From Actinomycetota bacterium (lineage in GTDB: Bacteria > Actinomycetota > Humimicrobiia > Humimicrobiales > Humimicrobiaceae): a stretch of 64,000 bases of DNA. Shown piece by piece: positions 2,354-44,788 of the stretch. The position numbers and the translations under genes were made by a program. Every line of letters starts with the position of its first letter. Position 1 is the stretch's first letter. The notes below the pieces were generated by a model. It saw only the letters and a program-made list of their open reading frames with translations. It was not told where the DNA came from and did no database searches. The stretch is from assembly GCA_018400395.1 (NCBI GenBank), contig JAGYMN010000001.1:2354-66353 (forward strand), written 5' to 3'.

Positions 2354-3657
2354 ATTTTTAAGCCTTTCATATTTTTACCAATCATAACTGTATTGAAATT
2401 ATCGGGTAAGAAATATTTTTCAACAACCCTGTTTATGTCAGATACTTTTATCTTATCTATTTTCTTTAATATCTGGTCGATAGTCAAAACCTTTTTATCG
2501 AATAACAAAGACTTCCCGAGCCTGAACATTCTGGAGCTTATATCTTCAACTCCAAGGACTATGTTCCCTTTAATATTTTCCCTTGCTATTTCCATTTCTT
2601 CACTGGATATACCCTTTTTCCTTATATTCTCTATTTCTTCATTTATTAACATAAGAATCTTATTCATATTTCCTGCTGAGGAGGCAGAATAAATAAATAA
2701 GAGACCGGTATCACTGTAATTTACATTATTTGCTGATATGTTATACGCCAGCCCTTCTTCTTCCCGTATTTTCTGAAAAAGCCGGCTGCTCATACTGCCT
2801 CCTAAAAGACTTACGAATAAAGTAAGCGGATAACGGTCGCTATTGCTTCTTCCACATCCCGGACCTCCTATACACATATGCACTGCCTTGCTCTTCCCGT
2901 AATGAATCTTCCTGCTTCCAACGGTCCTTGAAGGCCATTTTATTTCAACCGATTCAATGCCATGACTGTGATATTTTGATTTATCAGAGGCCTCTTTTAC
3001 CATTTTAACAAGGCTGTTATGTTCTACATTCCCTGCTGCAGAAATTACCATGTCATTTAAACCAAATTTTTTAGAAAAATAGGAACTTACTTCTTTTTTA
3101 TTTATTTTTCTCAGAGTTTTTTTTGAACCCATTATAGGCAGTGATAATGAATGCCCATTGAATACCTCAGAAAAAAAATGGTTTAATAGTATTTCCGATG
3201 GGCTATCTTCCATCATTTTTATTTCTTCAGTTATTACTCTTTTTTCAGTTTCAATATGTTCGGAAAAAAAAGATGGATTACATATGATATCAAGAAGGAG
3301 ATCCATGCATCCGGTTAGATTTTCGTCTATAAAATCTGCATATACACAGCAGTATTCTTTATCAGTAAAAGCATTAAATTCAGCACCCATGGCATCAAAT
3401 TCAACAGCAATATCTTTATAACTTCTGTTATTTGTGCCTTTGAATATTAAATGTTCAATCAGATGTGTTATTCCGTTATTTTTACTGTTTTCATCTCTGG
3501 AGCCGGCTTGTACCCAGAAACCAAGCGATATTGATCTAAAATACGGAATGCTTTCACTAATTATCCTTATTCCGTTACTCAGCTCGGTAATCTTATAATT
3601 ATCAAAACTACTGCTTCTTTTTATTGCTATCTTGCTATCAACTCCAAACTGCTTTAT
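2350..3657 (-). CDS. M16 family (insulinase/pitrilysin-like) zinc peptidase; start codon non-canonical/uncertain
   Basis: ORF track gives 2350..3390 (346 aa) from first ATG, but in-frame upstream sequence with no stop encodes NYKITELSNGIRI...GSRDENSKNNGITHLIEHLIFKGT (HxxEH zinc-binding inverted zincin motif). No ATG/GTG/TTG in that stretch; candidate ATA start at 3655-3657. Synteny pnp-M16 peptidase as in Bacillus (pnpA-ylxY-mlpA). Confidence 0.7.
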   Translation of the reverse strand: MKQFGVDSKIAIKRSSSFDNYKITELSNGIRIISESIPYFRSISLGFWVQAGSRDENSKNNGITHLIEHLIFKGTNNRSYKDIAVEFDAMGAEFNAFTDKEYCCVYADFIDENLTGCMDLLLDIICNPSFFSEHIETEKRVITEEIKMMEDSPSEILLNHFFSEVFNGHSLSLPIMGSKKTLRKINKKEVSSYFSKKFGLNDMVISAAGNVEHNSLVKMVKEASDKSKYHSHGIESVEIKWPSRTVGSRKIHYGKSKAVHMCIGGPGCGRSNSDRYPLTLFVSLLGGSMSSRLFQKIREEEGLAYNISANNVNYSDTGLLFIYSASSAGNMNKILMLINEEIENIRKKGISSEEMEIARENIKGNIVLGVEDISSRMFRLGKSLLFDKKVLTIDQILKKIDKIKVSDINRVVEKYFLPDNFNTVMIGKNMKGLKI

Positions 3658-3658
3658 A

Positions 3659-5803
3659 TTACTGGATGTCGGTTCTCTCCAGGCTTATCTTCCTGCTCCT
3701 GGGATCTATGTTTGCTACTCTTACAGAAATCCTGTCCCCCATTTTCAGATAATCCTCAACGCTATTAATCCTTGTTTTTGCAACTTTTGATATATGAAGC
3801 AGTCCATCTGTTCCGGGTATAAGATTTATAAAAGCACCGTAGGATGTTATACCTACTACCGTTCCCAAAAATTCTTCGCCCACCTTTATATCTTCAGGAG
3901 ATTTTATCATGTTTTCTATTTTTTTCCTTGCCATCTTTATAGCTTCGTCATCAGGAGATGTAATTGATATCATGCCTTCACCATTAAAATCCGTAACATC
4001 AATTTCATCAAGATCGAATTCTTCTTTCAAACCTTTTATATTTTTCCCGCCCGGGCCTATAATATCACCAATCTTATCCTTTGGAATCTTAAAGGTAGTA
4101 ATTTTAGGTGCTGCCTGCGAGAGTGAAGGTCTTGGTTCCGATATTGTCTCAAGCATCCTGTTAAGTATGAAGATTCTCCCTTCCCTGGCTTTTTCCAGGG
4201 CTTTTTTCATTATATCAAGGTTTATTCCTTTTATTTTTATATCCATCTGAAGTGCTGTAATACCCTTTGAAGTACCTGCTACCTTAAAATCCATATCTCC
4301 ATAAGAATCTTCAATTCCCTGAATATCTGTTAGTATTTCAAATTTATCTTCCTCTTTTATAAGCCCCATTGCAATACCTGAAACAGGACTCCTAAGAGGC
4401 ACTCCTGCATCCATTAAAGCAAGCGTGCTGCCGCAAACACTGGCCATTGATGTTGAACCGTTTGAACTTAATATCTCTGATACCATTCTTAATGCATATG
4501 GAAAATCTTCTTCATCAGGAATCATCGGCTTAAGTGCTTTTTCGGCCAGTGAACCGTGCCCTATTTCCCTCCTCTTTGGTCCCCTCAGAGGCCAGGTCTC
4601 CCCTGTACTGAATGGAGGGAAGTTGTAATGGTGCATATATCTTTTAAATTCATCTCCGCCAAGACTGTCAAGCCTCTGAACTTCTCTTATGGAACCAAGA
4701 GCAAGAATTGTCAGGGCCTGGGTTTTGCCTCTTGTAAAAAGACCTGTCCCATGAGTAGTCTCAGGGAAAAGGCCTACTTCGCAGGATATCTTTCTTATTT
4801 CCGAAGTTTTCCTTCCATCAGGTCTTATTCCCTTCTTAAGTATCATATCCCTTACAAGTTCTTTTTCAATGATATCAAAACTTATATTTATGCTCTCTCT
4901 TTCATCAGGAAATTCCTTTAACAGCTCTTCCAGTATATCTTCTTTTATCTGCAATGTTCTTTCCTTCAGAAAATCACCCATATCTTCCTGTATGATGTTT
5001 GATTTTCCGGGATCCTTCGATAATTCTTCAACCTCGGCAAGCACTTTCTTCATCCTGTCCAGTGTCAGTACTTCTGTTTTCTTTTTTACCTCTTCATTAA
5101 CCTCAAAACGGAATACCTCGGATTTTTCTTTTCCAACTTCTTTCTTAAATTCTTTCTGGAGTTCCGCAATCCTCTTTATTTCAATATGTGCTTTTTCTAT
5201 TGCTTCAATAACTAATTCCTCAGAAGCTTCTTTACCGGAAGCTTCCACCATCAATATCGCATTATCAGTACCAGCAACTACTATATCCAGTATACTTTTT
5301 TTTAGCTCTTCATATGTAGGATTTACAATCCATTCCCCGTTAATATTCCCCATCCTTACTGCACCTACAGGTTCTTCAAAAGGTATATCTGATATATACA
5401 GCGACATTGAAGCTCCATTTAATACTGAAATATCGTAAAGATTAATCTTATCTACTGAAAGCACGGTTGCAATTATTTGAACCTCATTTCTTATATCCCT
5501 ATCAAAGAGAGGTCTCAACGGTCTGTCCGTAAGTCGCGAGATGAGAATTGCTTTGTCAGAGGCTCTTCCTTCTCTTCTAAAAAACCCGCCGGGTATCTTA
5601 CCGGCTGCATACATTCTTTCCTCTACGTCTACCGTAAGCGGAAAGAAATCAAGGTTTTCTGATGGTTCACGGCTCATTACTGCTGTTACGAGCACACCAT
5701 TGCCTGCATATTTGACAAGAACAGAATTTGCCCTGTTTGCCATTTTACCGGTGGAAAATTCCATATCCTTTCCACCTAAATTTATTTTACATTTAGCTTC
5801 CAT
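3659..5803 (-). CDS. pnp: Polyribonucleotide nucleotidyltransferase (PNPase)
   Basis: 714 aa; two RNase PH domains, KH and S1 C-terminus (…GEEFLGTVVGITSYGAFINL…); preceded by rpsO as in canonical rpsO-pnp operon; SD AAGGAG upstream. Confidence 0.95.
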   Translation of the reverse strand: MEAKCKINLGGKDMEFSTGKMANRANSVLVKYAGNGVLVTAVMSREPSENLDFFPLTVDVEERMYAAGKIPGGFFRREGRASDKAILISRLTDRPLRPLFDRDIRNEVQIIATVLSVDKINLYDISVLNGASMSLYISDIPFEEPVGAVRMGNINGEWIVNPTYEELKKSILDIVVAGTDNAILMVEASGKEASEELVIEAIEKAHIEIKRIAELQKEFKKEVGKEKSEVFRFEVNEEVKKKTEVLTLDRMKKVLAEVEELSKDPGKSNIIQEDMGDFLKERTLQIKEDILEELLKEFPDERESINISFDIIEKELVRDMILKKGIRPDGRKTSEIRKISCEVGLFPETTHGTGLFTRGKTQALTILALGSIREVQRLDSLGGDEFKRYMHHYNFPPFSTGETWPLRGPKRREIGHGSLAEKALKPMIPDEEDFPYALRMVSEILSSNGSTSMASVCGSTLALMDAGVPLRSPVSGIAMGLIKEEDKFEILTDIQGIEDSYGDMDFKVAGTSKGITALQMDIKIKGINLDIMKKALEKAREGRIFILNRMLETISEPRPSLSQAAPKITTFKIPKDKIGDIIGPGGKNIKGLKEEFDLDEIDVTDFNGEGMISITSPDDEAIKMARKKIENMIKSPEDIKVGEEFLGTVVGITSYGAFINLIPGTDGLLHISKVAKTRINSVEDYLKMGDRISVRVANIDPRSRKISLERTDIQ

Positions 5804-5873
5804 ATTACAACATCAAACTCCTTAAATCTTAAATATAAATGAATTGAAAAAATGAAGCCGGAATGAAGAGTGG

Positions 5874-6155
5874 TTATTTCCTTAATCCCAGTTCCTTGAT
5901 AAGCTTTTTATATTTTGAAATCTCACGATTTTTCAAATACTGAAGAAGCCTCTTTCTCTTCCCTACCATCATTACCAGACCCCTTCTTGAATGATTATCT
6001 TTCTTATTAGCCTTCAGATGCTCATTGAGTTTATTTATCCTGCTGGTCAGTATTGCAATCTGGACTTCCGTAGAGCCTGTATCCATTTCATGCGTTTTAA
6101 AATTTTCTATAATCTTCTGTTTTTCTTCTTTTACTAGTGTCAATCCGATATTCAC
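5874..6155 (-). CDS. rpsO: 30S ribosomal protein S15
   Basis: 93 aa; [17 protein letters not shown]…HSRRGL motif; GTG/TTG start adjacent to AGGAGG. Confidence 0.95.
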
Positions 6156-6246
6156 CTCCTTGAATAATCCGTCCTATAATTTATCACAAGTACTTTATAA
6201 TTACAATTGAATCAATTCCGTTTATTTCATAATTGATTATCTTCTA

Positions 6247-7191
6247 CTATGCCCTGAAAAATATTTCTGCATCAGAAATATCCTTTTTTATCTGTTCTAC
6301 CAGCTTCGTACTGTTTTTAAATTTTACTTCTCTTCTCAACTTTTTTAGAAAAGTTACCTTTATTTCCTTATCATATAAACAGCCTTCGAAATCAAGCAGG
6401 TGGCTTTCTACTACTTTTTTCTCCCCTCCAAATGTAGGATTTTTTCCAACATTAATTAATCCTTTAAGGTTCTTAATGCCATCATCTTTAATTGATACTC
6501 TACCAAAATATACACCATCTCCTGGGACTATAAGCTTTTCGGGTAAATCAATATTTGCAGTGGGAAATCCAAGTTTCCTTCCCCTGCCCGTTCCCCTAAC
6601 AACTCTTCCTTTAACATAAGGTTCTCTTCCAAGAAGTTCATTTATCCTTTCAATATTACCTTCCTGATAATACTTCCTGATGACAGTGCTTGATATCACC
6701 TCACCCCTGCTCTTTACCAGGCTTACTTCATTTATAATAGCTCCCTGGCTGCCCATATAATCTTTTAAAAATGCCGTATCTCCTCCGGCATCCTTACCAA
6801 ATCTGAAACCCTGACCTATAAAAAGTCCTTTTATATAAAATAATCCTTTTAATATATCATCACAGAATACTTTTGGGCTAAGATTTAAAAAATCCATTCC
6901 AATTTCTGCAGTTACTATTGCTTCTATTCCCAGTTTTTTTATTATTCTTATTTTTTCCTCATAGGGAAGAATCAACTCTTTATATATTCTGCTTTTAATG
7001 ATATTTATTGGAGGTCTGTCAAATGTAAGTGCCACGCTCGTTCCTCCATTTTCCAATGCTCTTTCACAGCACATTTTTATTATTTTCTGGTGTCCCCTGT
7101 GCACTCCGTCAAAAAAGCCTATCACCATCAGTGTATGGGCATCTTTGAATTGATCTTTTTTTATATCTTTTAATTTAAAAATTCTGGCCAA
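6247..7191 (-). CDS. ribF: Bifunctional riboflavin kinase / FMN adenylyltransferase
   Basis: 314 aa; GFFDGVHRGHQ nucleotidyltransferase motif, C-terminal riboflavin kinase domain (PTAN…, GVY). Confidence 0.9.
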   Translation of the reverse strand: MARIFKLKDIKKDQFKDAHTLMVIGFFDGVHRGHQKIIKMCCERALENGGTSVALTFDRPPINIIKSRIYKELILPYEEKIRIIKKLGIEAIVTAEIGMDFLNLSPKVFCDDILKGLFYIKGLFIGQGFRFGKDAGGDTAFLKDYMGSQGAIINEVSLVKSRGEVISSTVIRKYYQEGNIERINELLGREPYVKGRVVRGTGRGRKLGFPTANIDLPEKLIVPGDGVYFGRVSIKDDGIKNLKGLINVGKNPTFGGEKKVVESHLLDFEGCLYDKEIKVTFLKKLRREVKFKNSTKLVEQIKKDISDAEIFFRA

Positions 7192-39730: not shown

Positions 39731-40750
39731 TTAATTAATTGCTGATCCTATCCCTGCAGCTATCTTTTCTACCAGATCTGTTTTAAGGCTTTCTCCTGCA
39801 ACCCTTATTGCATTTTTAATAGCTTTTGCCTTTGAGCTTCCATGGGATATTATTACCGGGGCATTCAGCCCCAGAAGCTGTGCACCGCCGTATGTCTCGT
39901 AGTCAAATTTGTCTTTCATTGCCCCCAGCGGCTTTTTAAGGAAAAGGGCAGCCATTTTCGATACTATTGAAGAAGTCAGGACATCCCTTACCTGCTTAAA
40001 AAACATTCTGGCCAGTCCTTCTACTGATTTTAATATTACATTACCTGTAAAACCATCGGTTACTACTACATCTGCCATACCTTCAAATATTTCACGCCCT
40101 TCTATATTCCCCATGAAATTAATGCCTTTGATTTCCTTTATTAGCCTGTATGCTTCAACAGCCAGCTCGCTTCCCTTCTTCTCCTCTTCACCTATATTTA
40201 CCAGTCCAACTTTCGGGTTATCTATCCCGAGTATATTCTCGGCATAAGTTTTTCCCATTATTGCAAATTGTGCCAGATACACCGGCTTACAGTCCGCATT
40301 TGCACCCCCGTCAACAAGTACGAATTTTGAATCCCCAAGCGGTATCACAACTGCAATTACCGGACGTATGACCCCTTTTATCCTTTTAATGTTAAAAAGC
40401 GAACATGCCATTACGGCCCCGGTATTTCCGGCAGATAGGAATGCTGAGCCCCTGCCCTCCTGAACAGCTCTGGAACCTATATAAATGGAAGAATCTTTTT
40501 TGTTCCTTAAAACATCGGAAGGGGATTCCCCCATACCTACCTCGCTGCTGCTGCTAATTATTTCAAGACCTGATATATCAATATTATTTTCTTCTGCGAA
40601 TGAATTTATCCTCTCAACATTACCTGTAAGAACAGGTTTTATACTGAACTGTTTCTCAGCTGCAACAGCACCTCTTATTACTTCACCGGGTGCAAAATCA
40701 CCGCCCATTGCATCAACCACAATAGAATATTTTTTATATTTATCTTCCAC
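39731..40750 (-). CDS. plsX: Phosphate acyltransferase PlsX
   Basis: 339 aa; N-terminal IVVDAMGGD…P motif typical of PlsX. Confidence 0.9.
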   Translation of the reverse strand: MEDKYKKYSIVVDAMGGDFAPGEVIRGAVAAEKQFSIKPVLTGNVERINSFAEENNIDISGLEIISSSSEVGMGESPSDVLRNKKDSSIYIGSRAVQEGRGSAFLSAGNTGAVMACSLFNIKRIKGVIRPVIAVVIPLGDSKFVLVDGGANADCKPVYLAQFAIMGKTYAENILGIDNPKVGLVNIGEEEKKGSELAVEAYRLIKEIKGINFMGNIEGREIFEGMADVVVTDGFTGNVILKSVEGLARMFFKQVRDVLTSSIVSKMAALFLKKPLGAMKDKFDYETYGGAQLLGLNAPVIISHGSSKAKAIKNAIRVAGESLKTDLVEKIAAGIGSAIN

Positions 40751-40770: not shown

Positions 40771-41835
40771 TTATTTTTTGGATAATTCAAGAATTTTTTC
40801 TGTATCTATGTATTCCCTTACCACCTCTACTATTTTATCTATCTTCTTTAATTCATGGAATCTAACGTGTCCGATTATCTCACCGACCTTCTCTACGGCT
40901 GTAAGTGTATCATAATTAACTAAGATCATCGGTACCCCCAGCTCTTCTGCCCTTCCAAGAACTACTGTTGAAGGCTGGAAATTACCTGTCAGTATAAGAC
41001 ACTTTGTATGTGTCTCCAGCGCAGCTAGCTGTACATCTGCTCTGTCACCACCGGTGATAACTGCCTTATTTGCCTTCCTCCGGAAAAATTTAAGAGCCTG
41101 TTCCTGCCCCATAGCTCCTACCATGAATGTTTCAACCAGTTCATCTGACTTTTCTTCTGCGCATATTATCTGTCCATTAAGAAAGTCTGCCATCTCCCTG
41201 ACACTCACCGATGAAAGAATTCTGTCGGAGAGGACATATCCAAAAGTCTCAACTCCCCTGTTTTCCAGATACGGTAATACAAGTTCTTCAAGGTAATTCA
41301 CCTGGCTTCTGGGTACCAAGTTTATTATAATCCCGCCAAAATAATCCCCAAGTATCTTCCTTGAGAAAAGTATTTCATCGACCATATTATTATCATATTT
41401 AAATACCATTATAGTTTTTGCATTCAGCCTTTCTGTTATTTTAACAGCAGATATTCCCATAAAACATCCATCTTCTATACTCTTTGCGCCTTCAAGCACA
41501 ACAATATCTTTATTTTTCTTAATGTTATTATAAGATTTCTCTATTTTATTAATAAATTCTTTTGAGGAGTTCTCGTCTTTTAATCCGTCCCTGCAGCACT
41601 GCTGGGTTAACACTACAGGGCATATATCTTCAAGCTTTTCTTCAAGCTTAAGAATATTGGAGATATACTGTGCATCTTCATCAGTGGTAATACCTCCAAC
41701 CCTTGTTGGAAGGGTCCCTACAGGTTTCATATACCCTACCTTTAAACCTTTTTCGGTAAATATTTTGCTGACTCCTACGCATATAGAACTTTTCCCGGAA
41801 AACGGCTGATTTGAAATAAAAAATAACGGGACCAT
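40771..41835 (-). CDS. Standalone BioD-like P-loop + DRTGG domain protein (resembles N-terminal regulatory half of phosphotransacetylase Pta; no PTA catalytic domain)
   Basis: 354 aa; N-terminus FFISNQPFSGKSSICVGVSKIFTEKGLKVGYMKP resembles Pta N-domain/CobQ-MinD P-loop; C-terminal …VITGGDRADVQLAALETHTKCLILTGN… matches DRTGG domain pattern. Confidence 0.65.
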   Translation of the reverse strand: MVPLFFISNQPFSGKSSICVGVSKIFTEKGLKVGYMKPVGTLPTRVGGITTDEDAQYISNILKLEEKLEDICPVVLTQQCCRDGLKDENSSKEFINKIEKSYNNIKKNKDIVVLEGAKSIEDGCFMGISAVKITERLNAKTIMVFKYDNNMVDEILFSRKILGDYFGGIIINLVPRSQVNYLEELVLPYLENRGVETFGYVLSDRILSSVSVREMADFLNGQIICAEEKSDELVETFMVGAMGQEQALKFFRRKANKAVITGGDRADVQLAALETHTKCLILTGNFQPSTVVLGRAEELGVPMILVNYDTLTAVEKVGEIIGHVRFHELKKIDKIVEVVREYIDTEKILELSKK

Positions 41836-41838
41836 TAT

Positions 41839-43941
41839 TTAACCTCCTATTCTTATTCTTGCATCTCCAGCAATGGAGCCTTTTCCCTTTCTCTTTACAA
41901 ATAAAGGATTAATATCCATCTCTATTATTTCAGGAAAATCTGTTACCAGTTGTGATGTCCTGAGAAGTATATCAATTATACTCTCTATATCTGACGGTTC
42001 TTCCCCCCTGGTGCCTTCTAAGAGTCTTATGGTTTTAATCTCCGATACCATCTCTTTTGCCATCTTTCTGTTTATCGGAACTATTCTGAAAGCCACATCC
42101 TTTAAGACTTCTACATATATCCCGCCAAGCCCAAACATTATAACATGTCCAAACTGGGGATCCTCGCTTATTCCTATTATTGTCTCCTTCTTATCCCTTA
42201 CCATCTCCTGTACAAGTACGCCCGAAATGTTTGCCTCCGGCATATATCTTTTTACATTTATCATTATCTGATCGAAGCTTTCTTCAAGCTCTTTTTCATC
42301 GTTTACACCTATTTTTATACCACCGACATCTGTTTTATGCAAAATATTTGGCGATACTATCTTGAGCACCACGGGATATCCGATCCTTTCCGCCTCTTCT
42401 TTTGCTTCTGCAATATCTTCTGCCACTTCAGCCCTGGGAACAGGGATTCTATAGGCTTCCAGTATTTTCCTTGCTTCCAGTTCACAAAGTTCCAGTCTTC
42501 CCGCGTCTATACATCTGCCAAATACTTTCTTTACTTTTTCTTCGTCAACATCAAATTCAACAACCGGCTGAAATTTTTCCAGTTTCCATTCATAATAATC
42601 CATCATTACGCTTAAAGTCTCTATTGCATCTTCGGGAATTTCAAAATTAGGTATTTTCTTCTTTGTAAGATAGTCTATTCCTTTCCTGACTTCATTGATT
42701 CCCATGAAACTTGTCATTACAGGTACTTTATTCCCGTTTTTCTCTACTACTTCAGCAATCGCTTTTGCAGTTTCAAGATCTTCTGTCATTGCCTGCGGTG
42801 TTAAAAGGACCAGTACAGCATCAACATTTTTATCTGCCATTACTGTCTCAAGCGCTTTTTTATATCTTTCTGAAAGCGCATCTCCCAGCACATCTACCGG
42901 GTTATAAATATTTGCAGCAGCCGGTAGAAATCCTTTTAATCTATCGATTGTCTCTACAGTAAAGCCTGCAAGCCTGATGCCTCTGTTTTCACACTCGTCA
43001 GTGGCCATAATGCCAGGCCCACCGGCATTTGTTATTACTGCTATATTTCTGCCCCTGGGAAGCGGCTGATATGAAAATGCTATGCTGTAATTAAAAAGTT
43101 CTTTTATATCTTTAGCCCTTATGATCCCTGTCTGCTTAAAAGCTGCATCATATGCCTTATTTGATCCTGCAAGTGTCCCCGTATGAGAAGAAACTGCCCT
43201 GGCTCCTGCGTCTGTGTTCCCGGATTTTATTATTATTACTGGTTTTTCTTTGGAAACTCTTGATGCAGCCCTTATAAAGTCCTTTCCAGCGGTGATACCT
43301 TCTATATATGCAGTTATTACATCCGTATTCTCATCATCGATCCATGCTTCAAAAAGATCATTTTCGGATATATCTGACTTATTACCAAGGGATACTACCT
43401 TTGAAAAGCCTATTTTTGATGCTCCTGCCCAGTCCAGTACTGATGTTAGAAGTGCACCAGATTGTGATATGAAACTAATCCTGCCCCTAAAAGGCATATT
43501 TGAAGAAAAAGTTGCATTTACCGGACAACCGGTATCCATCATTCCAAGGCAATTGGGCCCAAGTATCCTGATATTGCAGTATTTAGCCTTCTCTATAATC
43601 CCTTTTTCTCTCCTGGCTCCTTCTACTCCTGTTTCCTTGAATCCTGATGAGATAATTATTATAAATTCCACACCTTTTTCCGCACACTCTTCAAGGGCTT
43701 CCGGGATATATTCTGCCGGTATGACTATAACTGCAAGCTGTATGTTTTGGTCAATATCAAGTATTGAAGAATAGCACCTGTGGCCTCCAATATCACCTGC
43801 TTTTGGATTAACGGGGAATACCCTGCCTCTGTAGCCTGAATCTATAATGTTATCGAAAATTGTACGTCCCACTTTACCTTTATATCTGGCAGCACCTATT
43901 ACAGCTATAGAATCAGGACAAAAAAACTTCTTAAAACTCAA
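41839..43941 (-). CDS. acd: Acetate--CoA ligase (ADP-forming), fused alpha/beta (NDP-forming acyl-CoA synthetase superfamily)
   Basis: 700 aa; N-terminal CoA-binding Rossmann (IAVIGAARYKGKVG), succinyl-CoA-synthetase-like ligase-CoA domain with His loop (…SSHTGTLAGS…), C-terminal ATP-grasp; TTG start 7 nt after GGAGGG. Confidence 0.8.
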   Translation of the reverse strand: MSFKKFFCPDSIAVIGAARYKGKVGRTIFDNIIDSGYRGRVFPVNPKAGDIGGHRCYSSILDIDQNIQLAVIVIPAEYIPEALEECAEKGVEFIIIISSGFKETGVEGARREKGIIEKAKYCNIRILGPNCLGMMDTGCPVNATFSSNMPFRGRISFISQSGALLTSVLDWAGASKIGFSKVVSLGNKSDISENDLFEAWIDDENTDVITAYIEGITAGKDFIRAASRVSKEKPVIIIKSGNTDAGARAVSSHTGTLAGSNKAYDAAFKQTGIIRAKDIKELFNYSIAFSYQPLPRGRNIAVITNAGGPGIMATDECENRGIRLAGFTVETIDRLKGFLPAAANIYNPVDVLGDALSERYKKALETVMADKNVDAVLVLLTPQAMTEDLETAKAIAEVVEKNGNKVPVMTSFMGINEVRKGIDYLTKKKIPNFEIPEDAIETLSVMMDYYEWKLEKFQPVVEFDVDEEKVKKVFGRCIDAGRLELCELEARKILEAYRIPVPRAEVAEDIAEAKEEAERIGYPVVLKIVSPNILHKTDVGGIKIGVNDEKELEESFDQIMINVKRYMPEANISGVLVQEMVRDKKETIIGISEDPQFGHVIMFGLGGIYVEVLKDVAFRIVPINRKMAKEMVSEIKTIRLLEGTRGEEPSDIESIIDILLRTSQLVTDFPEIIEMDINPLFVKRKGKGSIAGDARIRIGG

Positions 43942-43992: not shown

Positions 43993-44214
43993 TTAACGGG
44001 TTCTGGCATCCGCGGCTTTTTCCTTCTCCTTTTTATCTTTCTCCTGTGGGATAAATTCATTATTCTTATAATATCCGCAATTGATGCATACATGATGTGC
44101 TATTTTTTTGCTGTGGCATCTTGGACATTCAGTTATATTTAATAGCTTTACTATATCGTGTGTTCGCCTTTTATTCCTGTTGGCTCTTGATGTTTTTCTC
44201 TTCGGAACAGCCAC
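43993..44214 (-). CDS. rpmF: 50S ribosomal protein L32
   Basis: 73 aa; MAVPKRKTSRANRNKRR…CPRC…C zinc ribbon; GTG start after AAAGGGG. Confidence 0.9.
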   Translation of the reverse strand: MAVPKRKTSRANRNKRRTHDIVKLLNITECPRCHSKKIAHHVCINCGYYKNNEFIPQEKDKKEKEKAADARTR

Positions 44215-44329: not shown

Positions 44330-44788
44330 CTATTGACCGGTAGAAATAGTATTTTTAAACTGCTCTCTGCCCTTTTCAATTGAATTTAGAAGTTTATGAA
44401 GAACAGCTTCAAGATTTGCCAGTTTTTCATCTGCATAATCTTCCGCTTCAAGCCGTATGGTCCTTGCCCGTGCCTCAATACCTGCCATCAGCTCTTCTGA
44501 TTTCCTCCTGGCTCTTTTCATAACCTCGGTCTCGTTTACCAGTTCGTTTGCCCTTTCTCCGGCATCCCTTATTATTTTTTCAGCCTGCTTCCTTGCCTCT
44601 TCTATCATGTTTTCTCGCTCTTTTACTATCCAGCGCGATTGCTTGAATTCTTCCGGCATCTCATTTCTGAGTTCATCAATAAGATCATATATTTCATCTC
44701 CGTTTACCATAACATTAGCTGAAAAAGGTATTCTCCTGCCGCCGTCTATAATTTCTTCTATCCTGTCAATAATCTCCAAAGCCTTCAT
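44330..44788 (-). CDS. Hypothetical coiled-coil protein (152 aa)
   Basis: All-helical charged sequence; sits where YceD/DUF177 usually precedes rpmF but lacks Cys motifs. Confidence 0.5.
   Translation of the reverse strand: MKALEIIDRIEEIIDGGRRIPFSANVMVNGDEIYDLIDELRNEMPEEFKQSRWIVKERENMIEEARKQAEKIIRDAGERANELVNETEVMKRARRKSEELMAGIEARARTIRLEAEDYADEKLANLEAVLHKLLNSIEKGREQFKNTISTGQ

Follow-up and report, generated by a model that had tools for sequence, protein, structure and literature searches.

A stand-alone BioD-like/DRTGG protein related to the N-terminal half of phosphotransacetylase is encoded directly downstream of an acetyl-CoA synthetase of the ADP-forming type in Bacteria and Archaea

We analysed a 64,000-nucleotide stretch of DNA from an Actinomycetota bacterium of the family Humimicrobiaceae (assembly GCA_018400395.1, contig JAGYMN010000001.1, positions 2,354 to 66,353; hereafter the window, whose own numbering is used throughout). 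It encodes a 354-aa protein made up of a BioD-like P-loop domain and a DRTGG domain, the two domains that form the N-terminal half of class-II phosphotransacetylase (Pta), and lacking the catalytic PTA domain; we use PtaN as a working name for such proteins. Its gene directly follows that of an acetyl-CoA synthetase of the ADP-forming type (ACD), and the same co-directional adjacency is found across bacterial phyla and in Archaea. By analogy with Pta, we give about an even chance to the proposal that PtaN and ACD constitute a two-gene functional unit, in which PtaN would act as a ligand-sensing and/or oligomerising accessory subunit of ACD. The matter is of wider interest, as many anaerobes, fermenting archaea and candidate acetogens, among them relatives of this bacterium without pta/ack, have ACD as their only acetate-forming enzyme that yields ATP. 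A conserved ACD partner offers an easily tested hypothesis on the control of this enzyme, together with a tractable stand-alone system for studying the DRTGG/Pta-N module.

Results

PtaN is the N-terminal module of class-II Pta encoded as a separate gene

The ptaN gene occupies positions 40771..41835 on the minus strand and begins with ATG. In Pfam searches its product matched AAA_26 (68.8 bits against a cut-off of 27; residues 8-177) followed by DRTGG (104.6 bits, cut-off 25.2; residues 215-317), and gave no match to PTA_PTB, the catalytic domain that makes up the C-terminal ~330 aa of class-II Pta. Out of the 708 positions in NF004167, the model for class-II Pta (PRK05632), residues 4-350 are colinear with 5-369, at a score of 118.9 bits that does not reach the cut-off of 418. 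Because the alignment goes no further than position 369, and its score is so far below the full-length cut-off, PtaN corresponds to the N-terminal half of Pta only. PtaN is the BioD-like P-loop plus DRTGG module of class-II Pta and is not a phosphotransacetylase: its domain order, its length of about 350 aa and its colinearity with the N-terminal half of Pta are those of a stand-alone Pta N-module. The Pfam and NCBIfam profiles agree in this with a preliminary description of the DNA, made from the nucleotide letters, which had named the 354-aa protein as a stand-alone Pta-N-like BioD/DRTGG protein with no PTA domain; the profile search that the description had named as able to refute this identity returned both AAA_26 and DRTGG.

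Membership of two related groups was considered and did not hold. PtaN scored 39.1 bits against the BioD model TIGR00347 (cut-off 83.3) and so falls outside the dethiobiotin synthetases. Its DRTGG part alone aligns with models of the CBS-domain pyrophosphatase (CBS-PPase) and SpxR type, and Pfam detected no CBS domain in it, which places it outside the CBS-DRTGG proteins. The catalytic half of E. coli Pta, used as a tblastn query, found no match in the window or in any collected locus, and a search for AckA in the 64-kb window was negative.

The family is large. Among 1.84 billion cluster representatives (50% identity), 1,796 clusters of PtaN homologues were found with E <= 1e-3, of which 457 had E <= 1e-30. 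The best 150 representatives, reaching down to 31% identity, are nearly all full-length (about 320-370 aa), the shorter ones being partial. Close homologues are named 'phosphotransacetylase family protein' at NCBI and, elsewhere, 'Phosphate acetyltransferase' (e.g. P0029) or 'AAA family ATPase'. Naming PtaN a phosphate acetyltransferase could therefore introduce a false Pta-AckA pathway into metabolic reconstructions from metagenome-assembled genomes (MAGs).

The ptaN and acd genes are adjacent and co-directional in several phyla

The window acd gene (41839..43941, minus strand, TTG start, 700 aa) ends three nucleotides before ptaN. The junction reads AGA ATA GGA GGT TAA ATA ATG, so that the two genes share a reading frame, and the ptaN Shine-Dalgarno sequence AGGAGG (41843..41848, minus strand) lies within the last acd codons. 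These open reading frames (ORFs) and the 3-nt gap are exactly as the preliminary description had given them when it called the protein operonic with a fused ACD.

That description had also proposed comparing the linkage in other genomes, and the comparison bore it out. A genome scan with one genome per species, using an alignment of 11 PtaN sequences as the query, found at least 590 genomes with a PtaN relative; the best-scoring 80 loci were analysed, with ACD detected by tblastn using the window proteins. An ACD gene lies directly upstream of ptaN on the same strand in 72 of these 80 species-level loci. Five of the eight ACD-less loci have less than 300 bp of upstream DNA, so that the pair is present in 72 of the 75 loci that are informative (96%), a figure that, coming from the 80 best of at least 590, therefore describes the clade nearest the query and not the family as a whole. 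Fifty-three loci have an intergenic gap of at most 60 nt, 17 have one of 60-300 nt and two have a larger one. Because order and strand are kept in 72 of 75 informative genomes, the pairing goes beyond chance, and ACD is by far the commonest partner of PtaN in the clade around the query.

Judged by record labels, the pair occurs within Actinomycetota in Humimicrobiaceae, Hydromicrobium, Solincola, Coriobacteriia and Anaerosomatales. It is also present in Chloroflexota (Anaerolineae, Caldilineae), Planctomycetota (four Candidatus Brocadia), Clostridia, Elusimicrobia, Armatimonadota, Poribacteria and one deltaproteobacterium. ACD is still found directly upstream where PtaN identity has fallen to 31-36%: it lies 4 nt upstream in P0217 and 10 nt upstream in P0196, while P0161 has the order yceD-rpmF-ACD-PtaN and P0187 the order ACD-PtaN ... 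enolase-pyruvate kinase. No natural ACD-PtaN fusion was seen among the 80 + 13 loci or the 150 best representatives, no dedicated search for one having been made.

The Archaeoglobus pair provides a context for PDB entry 2IOJ

The DRTGG half of PtaN matched PDB 2IOJ, the structure of AF1212 from Archaeoglobus fulgidus, with E 2.9e-28 (phmmer). This is the closest solved relative of that half; AF1212 and the window PtaN are about 32% identical overall, and the PDB title assigns no function. Scanning metagenomes with the AF1212 sequence led to a contig (L086) whose PtaN is 100% identical to it over the 127 residues tested. Here the protein is an intact 352-aa BioD-like plus DRTGG ORF (5395-6453), and it begins with no gap after a 685-aa ACD (3337-5394) that passes TIGR02717, the model for acetate--CoA ligase alpha subunits. 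Contigs L085 and L087 have the same ACD-PtaN arrangement. The crystallised AF1212 comprises 139 residues, whereas the L086 ORF encodes 352 aa and includes the BioD-like half; since a contig of identical sequence encodes the longer protein, the deposited or annotated form looks like the product of a truncated gene model or like a domain construct. The ACD-PtaN pair is thus a likely context for 2IOJ, a structural-genomics orphan from 2006.

From locus-tag order the L086 ACD is provisionally taken to be AF1211, an enzyme reportedly characterised biochemically by Musfeldt and Schonheit in 2002. The L086 ACD does not pass NF045494, a model of beta-alpha order (589 vs 1200). At the archaeal ACD-PtaN pairs plsX was not found. 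A protein search with the AF1212 fragment returned nine short or fragmentary matches, AF1212 itself not being among them, and two contigs from that search carry split or short DRTGG genes without ACD. In one metagenome contig (L083:1790-2908) the module appears divided into an AAA_26 ORF (114 aa), a 94-aa ORF and a DRTGG ORF (160 aa), adjoined by divergent pdxS/pdxT; the three ORFs may represent a genuine split gene or the result of frameshifts. By analogy with this contig, the divergent genes upstream of PtaN in five other archaeal-type loci (L090, L092, L093, L095, L096) look pdxS/pdxT-like by size.

The partner is a predicted acetate-type ACD

The 700-aa protein contains the CoA_binding_2, Succ_CoA_lig, Ligase_CoA_2 and ATP-grasp_5 domains of Pfam, in the five-domain alpha+beta architecture that identifies an ACD. 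It passes TIGR02717 at 595.9 against a cut-off of 567.15, and falls short of the thresholds set for the 4-hydroxybutyrate, 3-hydroxypropionate and Archaeoglobus-type equivalogs. On these models it is predicted to be an acetate-type NDP-forming acyl-CoA synthetase. The S251-S252-H253-T254-G255 loop and the H535-K536-x-D538 motif are conserved in at least 96% of the 72 PtaN-linked ACDs. The His253 loop (SSHTGTLAG; His253 codon at 43183..43185, minus strand) is the putative phosphohistidine loop, as known from the ACD/succinyl-CoA synthetase family, and H535, in the ATP-grasp part, the putative second catalytic histidine. As the SSHTG loop and the invariant H535 are retained, the PtaN-linked ACDs are predicted to be catalytically active. 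Related actinobacterial clades are without pta/ack and rely on acd (PMC7325909).

PtaN retains a BioD-like binding pocket

The AlphaFold2 (AF2) model of PtaN is confident (predicted local distance difference test score 91.6; predicted template modelling score 0.81). Foldseek searches of the PDB with this model gave a template modelling (TM) score, normalised to the target, of 0.83 for 2IOJ and about 0.70-0.73 for dethiobiotin synthetases. The N-terminal domain of E. coli Pta (7T85), also matched by phmmer, gave a TM score of 0.68, and the DRTGG region of a CBS-PPase was likewise among the best PDB matches. In fold searches the BioD-like domain groups with the MinD, HypB and ArsA ATPases.

The BioD-like domain spans residues ~1-200 (41236..41835, minus strand) and includes S8, G14-K15-S16, K37-P38, D52/D54, E115-G116 and N172. 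Of these, G14-K15-S16, K37-P38, D54, E115 and N172 align with the P-loop, Mg and substrate residues of BioD. Counted over the 72 ACD-linked PtaNs, K37 and N172 are each present in 72/72, D54 in 71/72, K15 in 69/72 and S/T16 in 62/72; E115 is found in 55/72 and lost in 17/72. The DRTGG domain (residues 206-332; 40840..41220, minus strand) has a core, T261-G-G-D-R-x-D267 plus T283-G284, that is essentially invariant in the same set. With its binding pocket intact and its catalytic glutamate dispensable, PtaN is more readily explained as a ligand sensor than as an obligatory enzyme.

The likeness to BioD therefore extends from the fold to K15, S/T16, K37, D54, E115 and N172. PtaN differs from BioD in its additional DRTGG domain, in having no biotin genes nearby and in the loss of the Glu115 equivalent from a quarter of its members. 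With the CBS-domain family II pyrophosphatases (3L2B/3L31) PtaN shares a homologous DRTGG domain (E about 4e-5), in that case within a nucleotide-regulated enzyme. There the domain is flanked by nucleotide-binding CBS domains, whereas PtaN has the BioD-like domain instead.

The PtaN module accompanies three routes from acetyl-CoA to acetate and ATP

PtaN is not exclusive to ACD: members of the family also lie beside PduL plus AckA, pyruvate kinase, NuoF-like genes or pta-ackA, or stand alone. In a Chloroflexia MAG (L036:3483-8958) a PduL-type phosphotransacylase (PF06130), AckA, a 115-aa ORF, a 393-aa PtaN and enolase are encoded in one direction. In Desulfovibrio vulgaris Hildenborough, DVU3031 of the luo operon is a stand-alone AAA plus DRTGG protein adjoining pta-ackA. 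The module thus accompanies three non-homologous routes from acetyl-CoA to acetate and ATP, namely PTA (by fusion or adjacency), PduL with AckA, and ACD.

Lower-glycolysis genes recur as PtaN neighbours: pyruvate kinase adjoins ptaN in L100, and in L112 (2835-9672) the genes after ACD-PtaN are an NTase/HEPN pair, enolase and pyruvate kinase.

The gene order rpmF-ACD-PtaN-plsX is ancient

In the window the pair lies between rpmF and plsX. The order rpmF-ACD-PtaN-plsX is common to Humimicrobiia-like, Coriobacteriia and Anaerosomatales MAGs, and plsX comes after PtaN in about 30 Actinomycetota loci as well as in the window. Outside Actinomycetota, more than 40 ACD-PtaN loci have no plsX nearby, the pair being placed elsewhere. 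The GC content is 0.38-0.40 over the pair and 0.36-0.40 in the flanks, with no step between them. The preliminary description had read the position as an insertion into the rpmF-plsX linkage; the position stands, while a recent event does not, the order being ancient and the GC content showing no anomaly. Recent horizontal insertion of the pair was rejected on the same two grounds, the order being kept across classes. In this part of Actinomycetota rpmF-ACD-PtaN-plsX is an old and stable arrangement. Since rpmF-plsX is an ancestral operon and the pair is placed inside it, the adjacency of PtaN to plsX is automatic.

Discussion

The closest precedent for PtaN is class-IIa Pta of E. coli and Salmonella, which has the BioD-like P-loop and DRTGG domains in the same order and colinear with PtaN. 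Both class-IIa Pta and PtaN accompany an enzyme that converts acetyl-CoA and Pi towards acetate and ATP. The module is fused to PTA_PTB in Pta, whereas PtaN is encoded by its own gene, and its partner ACD is unrelated in fold to PTA. They differ also within the nucleotide site: when PtaN is aligned with the BioD and Pta proteins of E. coli, Pta has a leucine at the Walker-A lysine position, and the lysine is kept in the stand-alone PtaN family. The preliminary description had equated PtaN with the E. coli-type module; the domains and their order support this, whereas identity with the E. coli form does not hold, as PtaN retains the Walker-A lysine and further nucleotide-site positions of BioD. 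The Pta enzymes of E. coli and Salmonella are described as responding allosterically to pyruvate, PEP, NADH and ATP. Class-II Pta requires its N-terminal domain to oligomerise and to reach maximal activity, and a variant in the DRTGG region of that domain changed activation by pyruvate (PMC12724200).

DVU3031 offers a second parallel, drawn from domains and neighbours. Like PtaN it has no PTA domain and is encoded with acetate/ATP-forming genes; unlike PtaN, it neighbours a full class-II pta and ackA, with no ACD. It has a fitness phenotype, and the literature explicitly terms it experimentally uncharacterised. The protein family, its domains and the regulatory role of the Pta N-terminal domain are already known. 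By contrast, the open-access literature that we searched describes neither the near-universal ACD pairing nor its reach into Archaeoglobus and to 2IOJ, nor the recurrence beside PduL/AckA, although neighbourhood databases may show the link. No paper in that literature was found to link DRTGG/Pta-N proteins with ACD or to treat the pair as a unit, though unrelated matches crowded several of the searches. The sole trace is a Kuenenia table in which kuste3169 and kuste3170 stand side by side without comment. The preliminary description was not aware of a characterisation, and this search likewise turned up no characterising paper.

We can now outline how such a unit might work. The BioD-like plus DRTGG module would be supplied in trans instead of being fused to the catalytic domain. 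PtaN would be translated in step with ACD through the 3-nt junction, would bind the ACD oligomer and would adjust the one-step conversion acetyl-CoA + ADP + Pi <-> acetate + ATP + CoA according to the energy and carbon state of the cell. Sensing is likely the task of the intact nucleotide-type pocket in the BioD-like domain, and docking or oligomerisation that of the DRTGG domain. The physical binding of PtaN to ACD, its ligand and its regulatory effect are proposed here by analogy with the Pta enzymes of E. coli and Salmonella; the same analogy underlies the preliminary description's suggestion that a module which senses pyruvate and NADH in E. coli-type Pta may be re-used to control ACD.

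A broader and appreciably less probable version of this proposal is that PtaN may be a portable ligand-sensing regulatory subunit, able to dock onto PTA (by fusion, or in trans as in DVU3031), PduL/AckA and ACD alike. If true, PtaN would be a convergently recruited 'overflow valve' controller, distributed from Archaeoglobus to anammox bacteria, and all ACDs characterised so far would have been studied without their physiological partner.

Several observations weigh against PtaN being a subunit of ACD. Activity without any partner is described for recombinant ACDs, that of A. fulgidus among them, and PtaN would therefore be at most an accessory. The scope of the 96% figure, given above, belongs here as well. 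Some PtaN genes, moreover, are found away from ACD. In L100 (5001-7632) a distant PtaN overlaps the beginning of the pyruvate kinase gene; another, in L101, is followed by NuoE/NuoF-like genes; and a third, in L107 (3079-6056), directly follows CDP-alcohol phosphatidyltransferase, plsY and queC-like genes. Tandem PtaN paralogues, ~40% identical to the window protein, are found in L055 (6001-8269), beside Fe-S, NAD-binding and NuoF-like genes and with no ACD in the complete upstream flank, and in L061 (134-2547), where no ACD was found in the only 133 bp of upstream DNA. The five archaeal-type loci with pdxS/pdxT-like neighbours have full flanks and encode PtaN without ACD. In an Actinomycetota MAG (L017:5384-8327) an intact 354-aa PtaN lies between rpmF and plsX with ACD absent within 6 kb, which suggests that PtaN can persist without ACD. 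In Kuenenia, expression of the pair is weak, the peptides detected numbering 1 and 0. Finally, the ACD and PtaN distance matrices are strongly correlated (r = 0.89, Mantel p about 0.001, mirror-tree analysis), and we rejected this correlation as evidence of specific linkage because shared species history gives an equal result.

Four other explanations have to be set beside the accessory-subunit proposal. PtaN might be an independent nucleotide-dependent enzyme or sensor of the pyruvate/acetyl-CoA/acetate node, co-transcribed with ACD without binding it. Much of the evidence just listed speaks for this: the retention of PtaN without ACD in L017, the non-ACD contexts (pyruvate kinase, enolase, PduL plus AckA, NuoF-like genes) and the largely retained BioD catalytic positions. 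The loss of the Glu115 equivalent in 17/72 sequences and the failure against the BioD model count on the other side, as does the covalent fusion of the module to its client in class-II Pta, a classic sign of physical cooperation; on balance we regard independent action as rather unlikely. A purely structural role, in which a SIMIBI-type P-loop protein organises the assembly of ACD (and elsewhere of Pta/AckA) with no allosteric sensing, seems to us a minor possibility. It would accord with the oligomerisation function of the class-II Pta N-terminal domain, with the grouping of the BioD-like fold with MinD, HypB and ArsA, and with a tight translational coupling that suits stoichiometric assembly. 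The pocket, with invariant K37, D54 in 71/72, N172 and K15 in 69/72, favours a bound ligand instead, and ACD lacks any metal centre or cofactor for which a maturation ATPase would be required.

The neighbouring plsX gene raises the question of whether, in this lineage, PtaN works with PlsX, as a split 'class-II' phosphate acyltransferase, and has ACD as an incidental neighbour. PlsX is a phosphate acyltransferase with Pta-like chemistry, and its gene lies 20 nt after ptaN in the window and adjoins it in about 30 Actinomycetota loci; moreover, PtaN stays beside plsX in L017 though ACD is absent, and a distant PtaN is found by plsY in L107. Against this, the adjacency follows automatically from placement inside the ancestral operon, more than 40 pairs outside Actinomycetota have no plsX nearby and none was found at the archaeal pairs, making a PlsX partnership very improbable. 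That PtaN is a decaying pta remnant or a meaningless neighbour could be suggested by the sources that name such proteins 'Phosphate acetyltransferase'. The 1,796 clusters with nearly all of the best 150 full-length, the conserved motifs, the confident AF2 model, the linkage kept across phyla and the fitness phenotype of DVU3031 all contradict it, and on the conservation data we consider this last explanation effectively refuted. An accessory subunit of ACD remains the reading to which we give the greatest weight.

Flanking genes and composition of the window

The ribosomal protein L32 gene rpmF (43993..44214, minus strand; Pfam Ribosomal_L32p, 80.2 bits) forms the upstream flank and is separated from acd by a 51-nt gap, in which a Shine-Dalgarno sequence GGAGGG lies 9 nt upstream of the TTG start codon. 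Downstream, a 20-nt gap separates ptaN from the phosphate acyltransferase gene plsX (39731..40750, minus strand, GTG start; Pfam FA_synthesis, 354.8 bits), whose Shine-Dalgarno sequence is GGGGAG. A promoter and terminator scan found no minus-strand terminator-like site in the rpmF-acd, acd-ptaN or ptaN-plsX gaps. Together, plsY in L107 and plsX in Actinomycetota make two acyl-phosphate/lipid neighbours of PtaN.

Between coaD and rpmF, in the place usually taken by yceD, lies a gene for a 152-aa predicted coiled-coil protein (44330-44788, minus strand), which is kept in Humimicrobiia-like and Coriobacteriia loci. No Pfam family matched it above cut-off, and DivIVA and ATP-synt_B gave weak matches. 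Metagenome contigs from samples 3300077563 and 3300001533 match the window itself, and the labels on close homologues read Actinomycetota, Candidatus Humimicrobiaceae or Candidatus Hydromicrobium. From 30000 to 52000 almost every gene is on the minus strand and the GC skew is uniformly and strongly negative (about -0.15 to -0.33), consistent with a single replichore with co-oriented genes.

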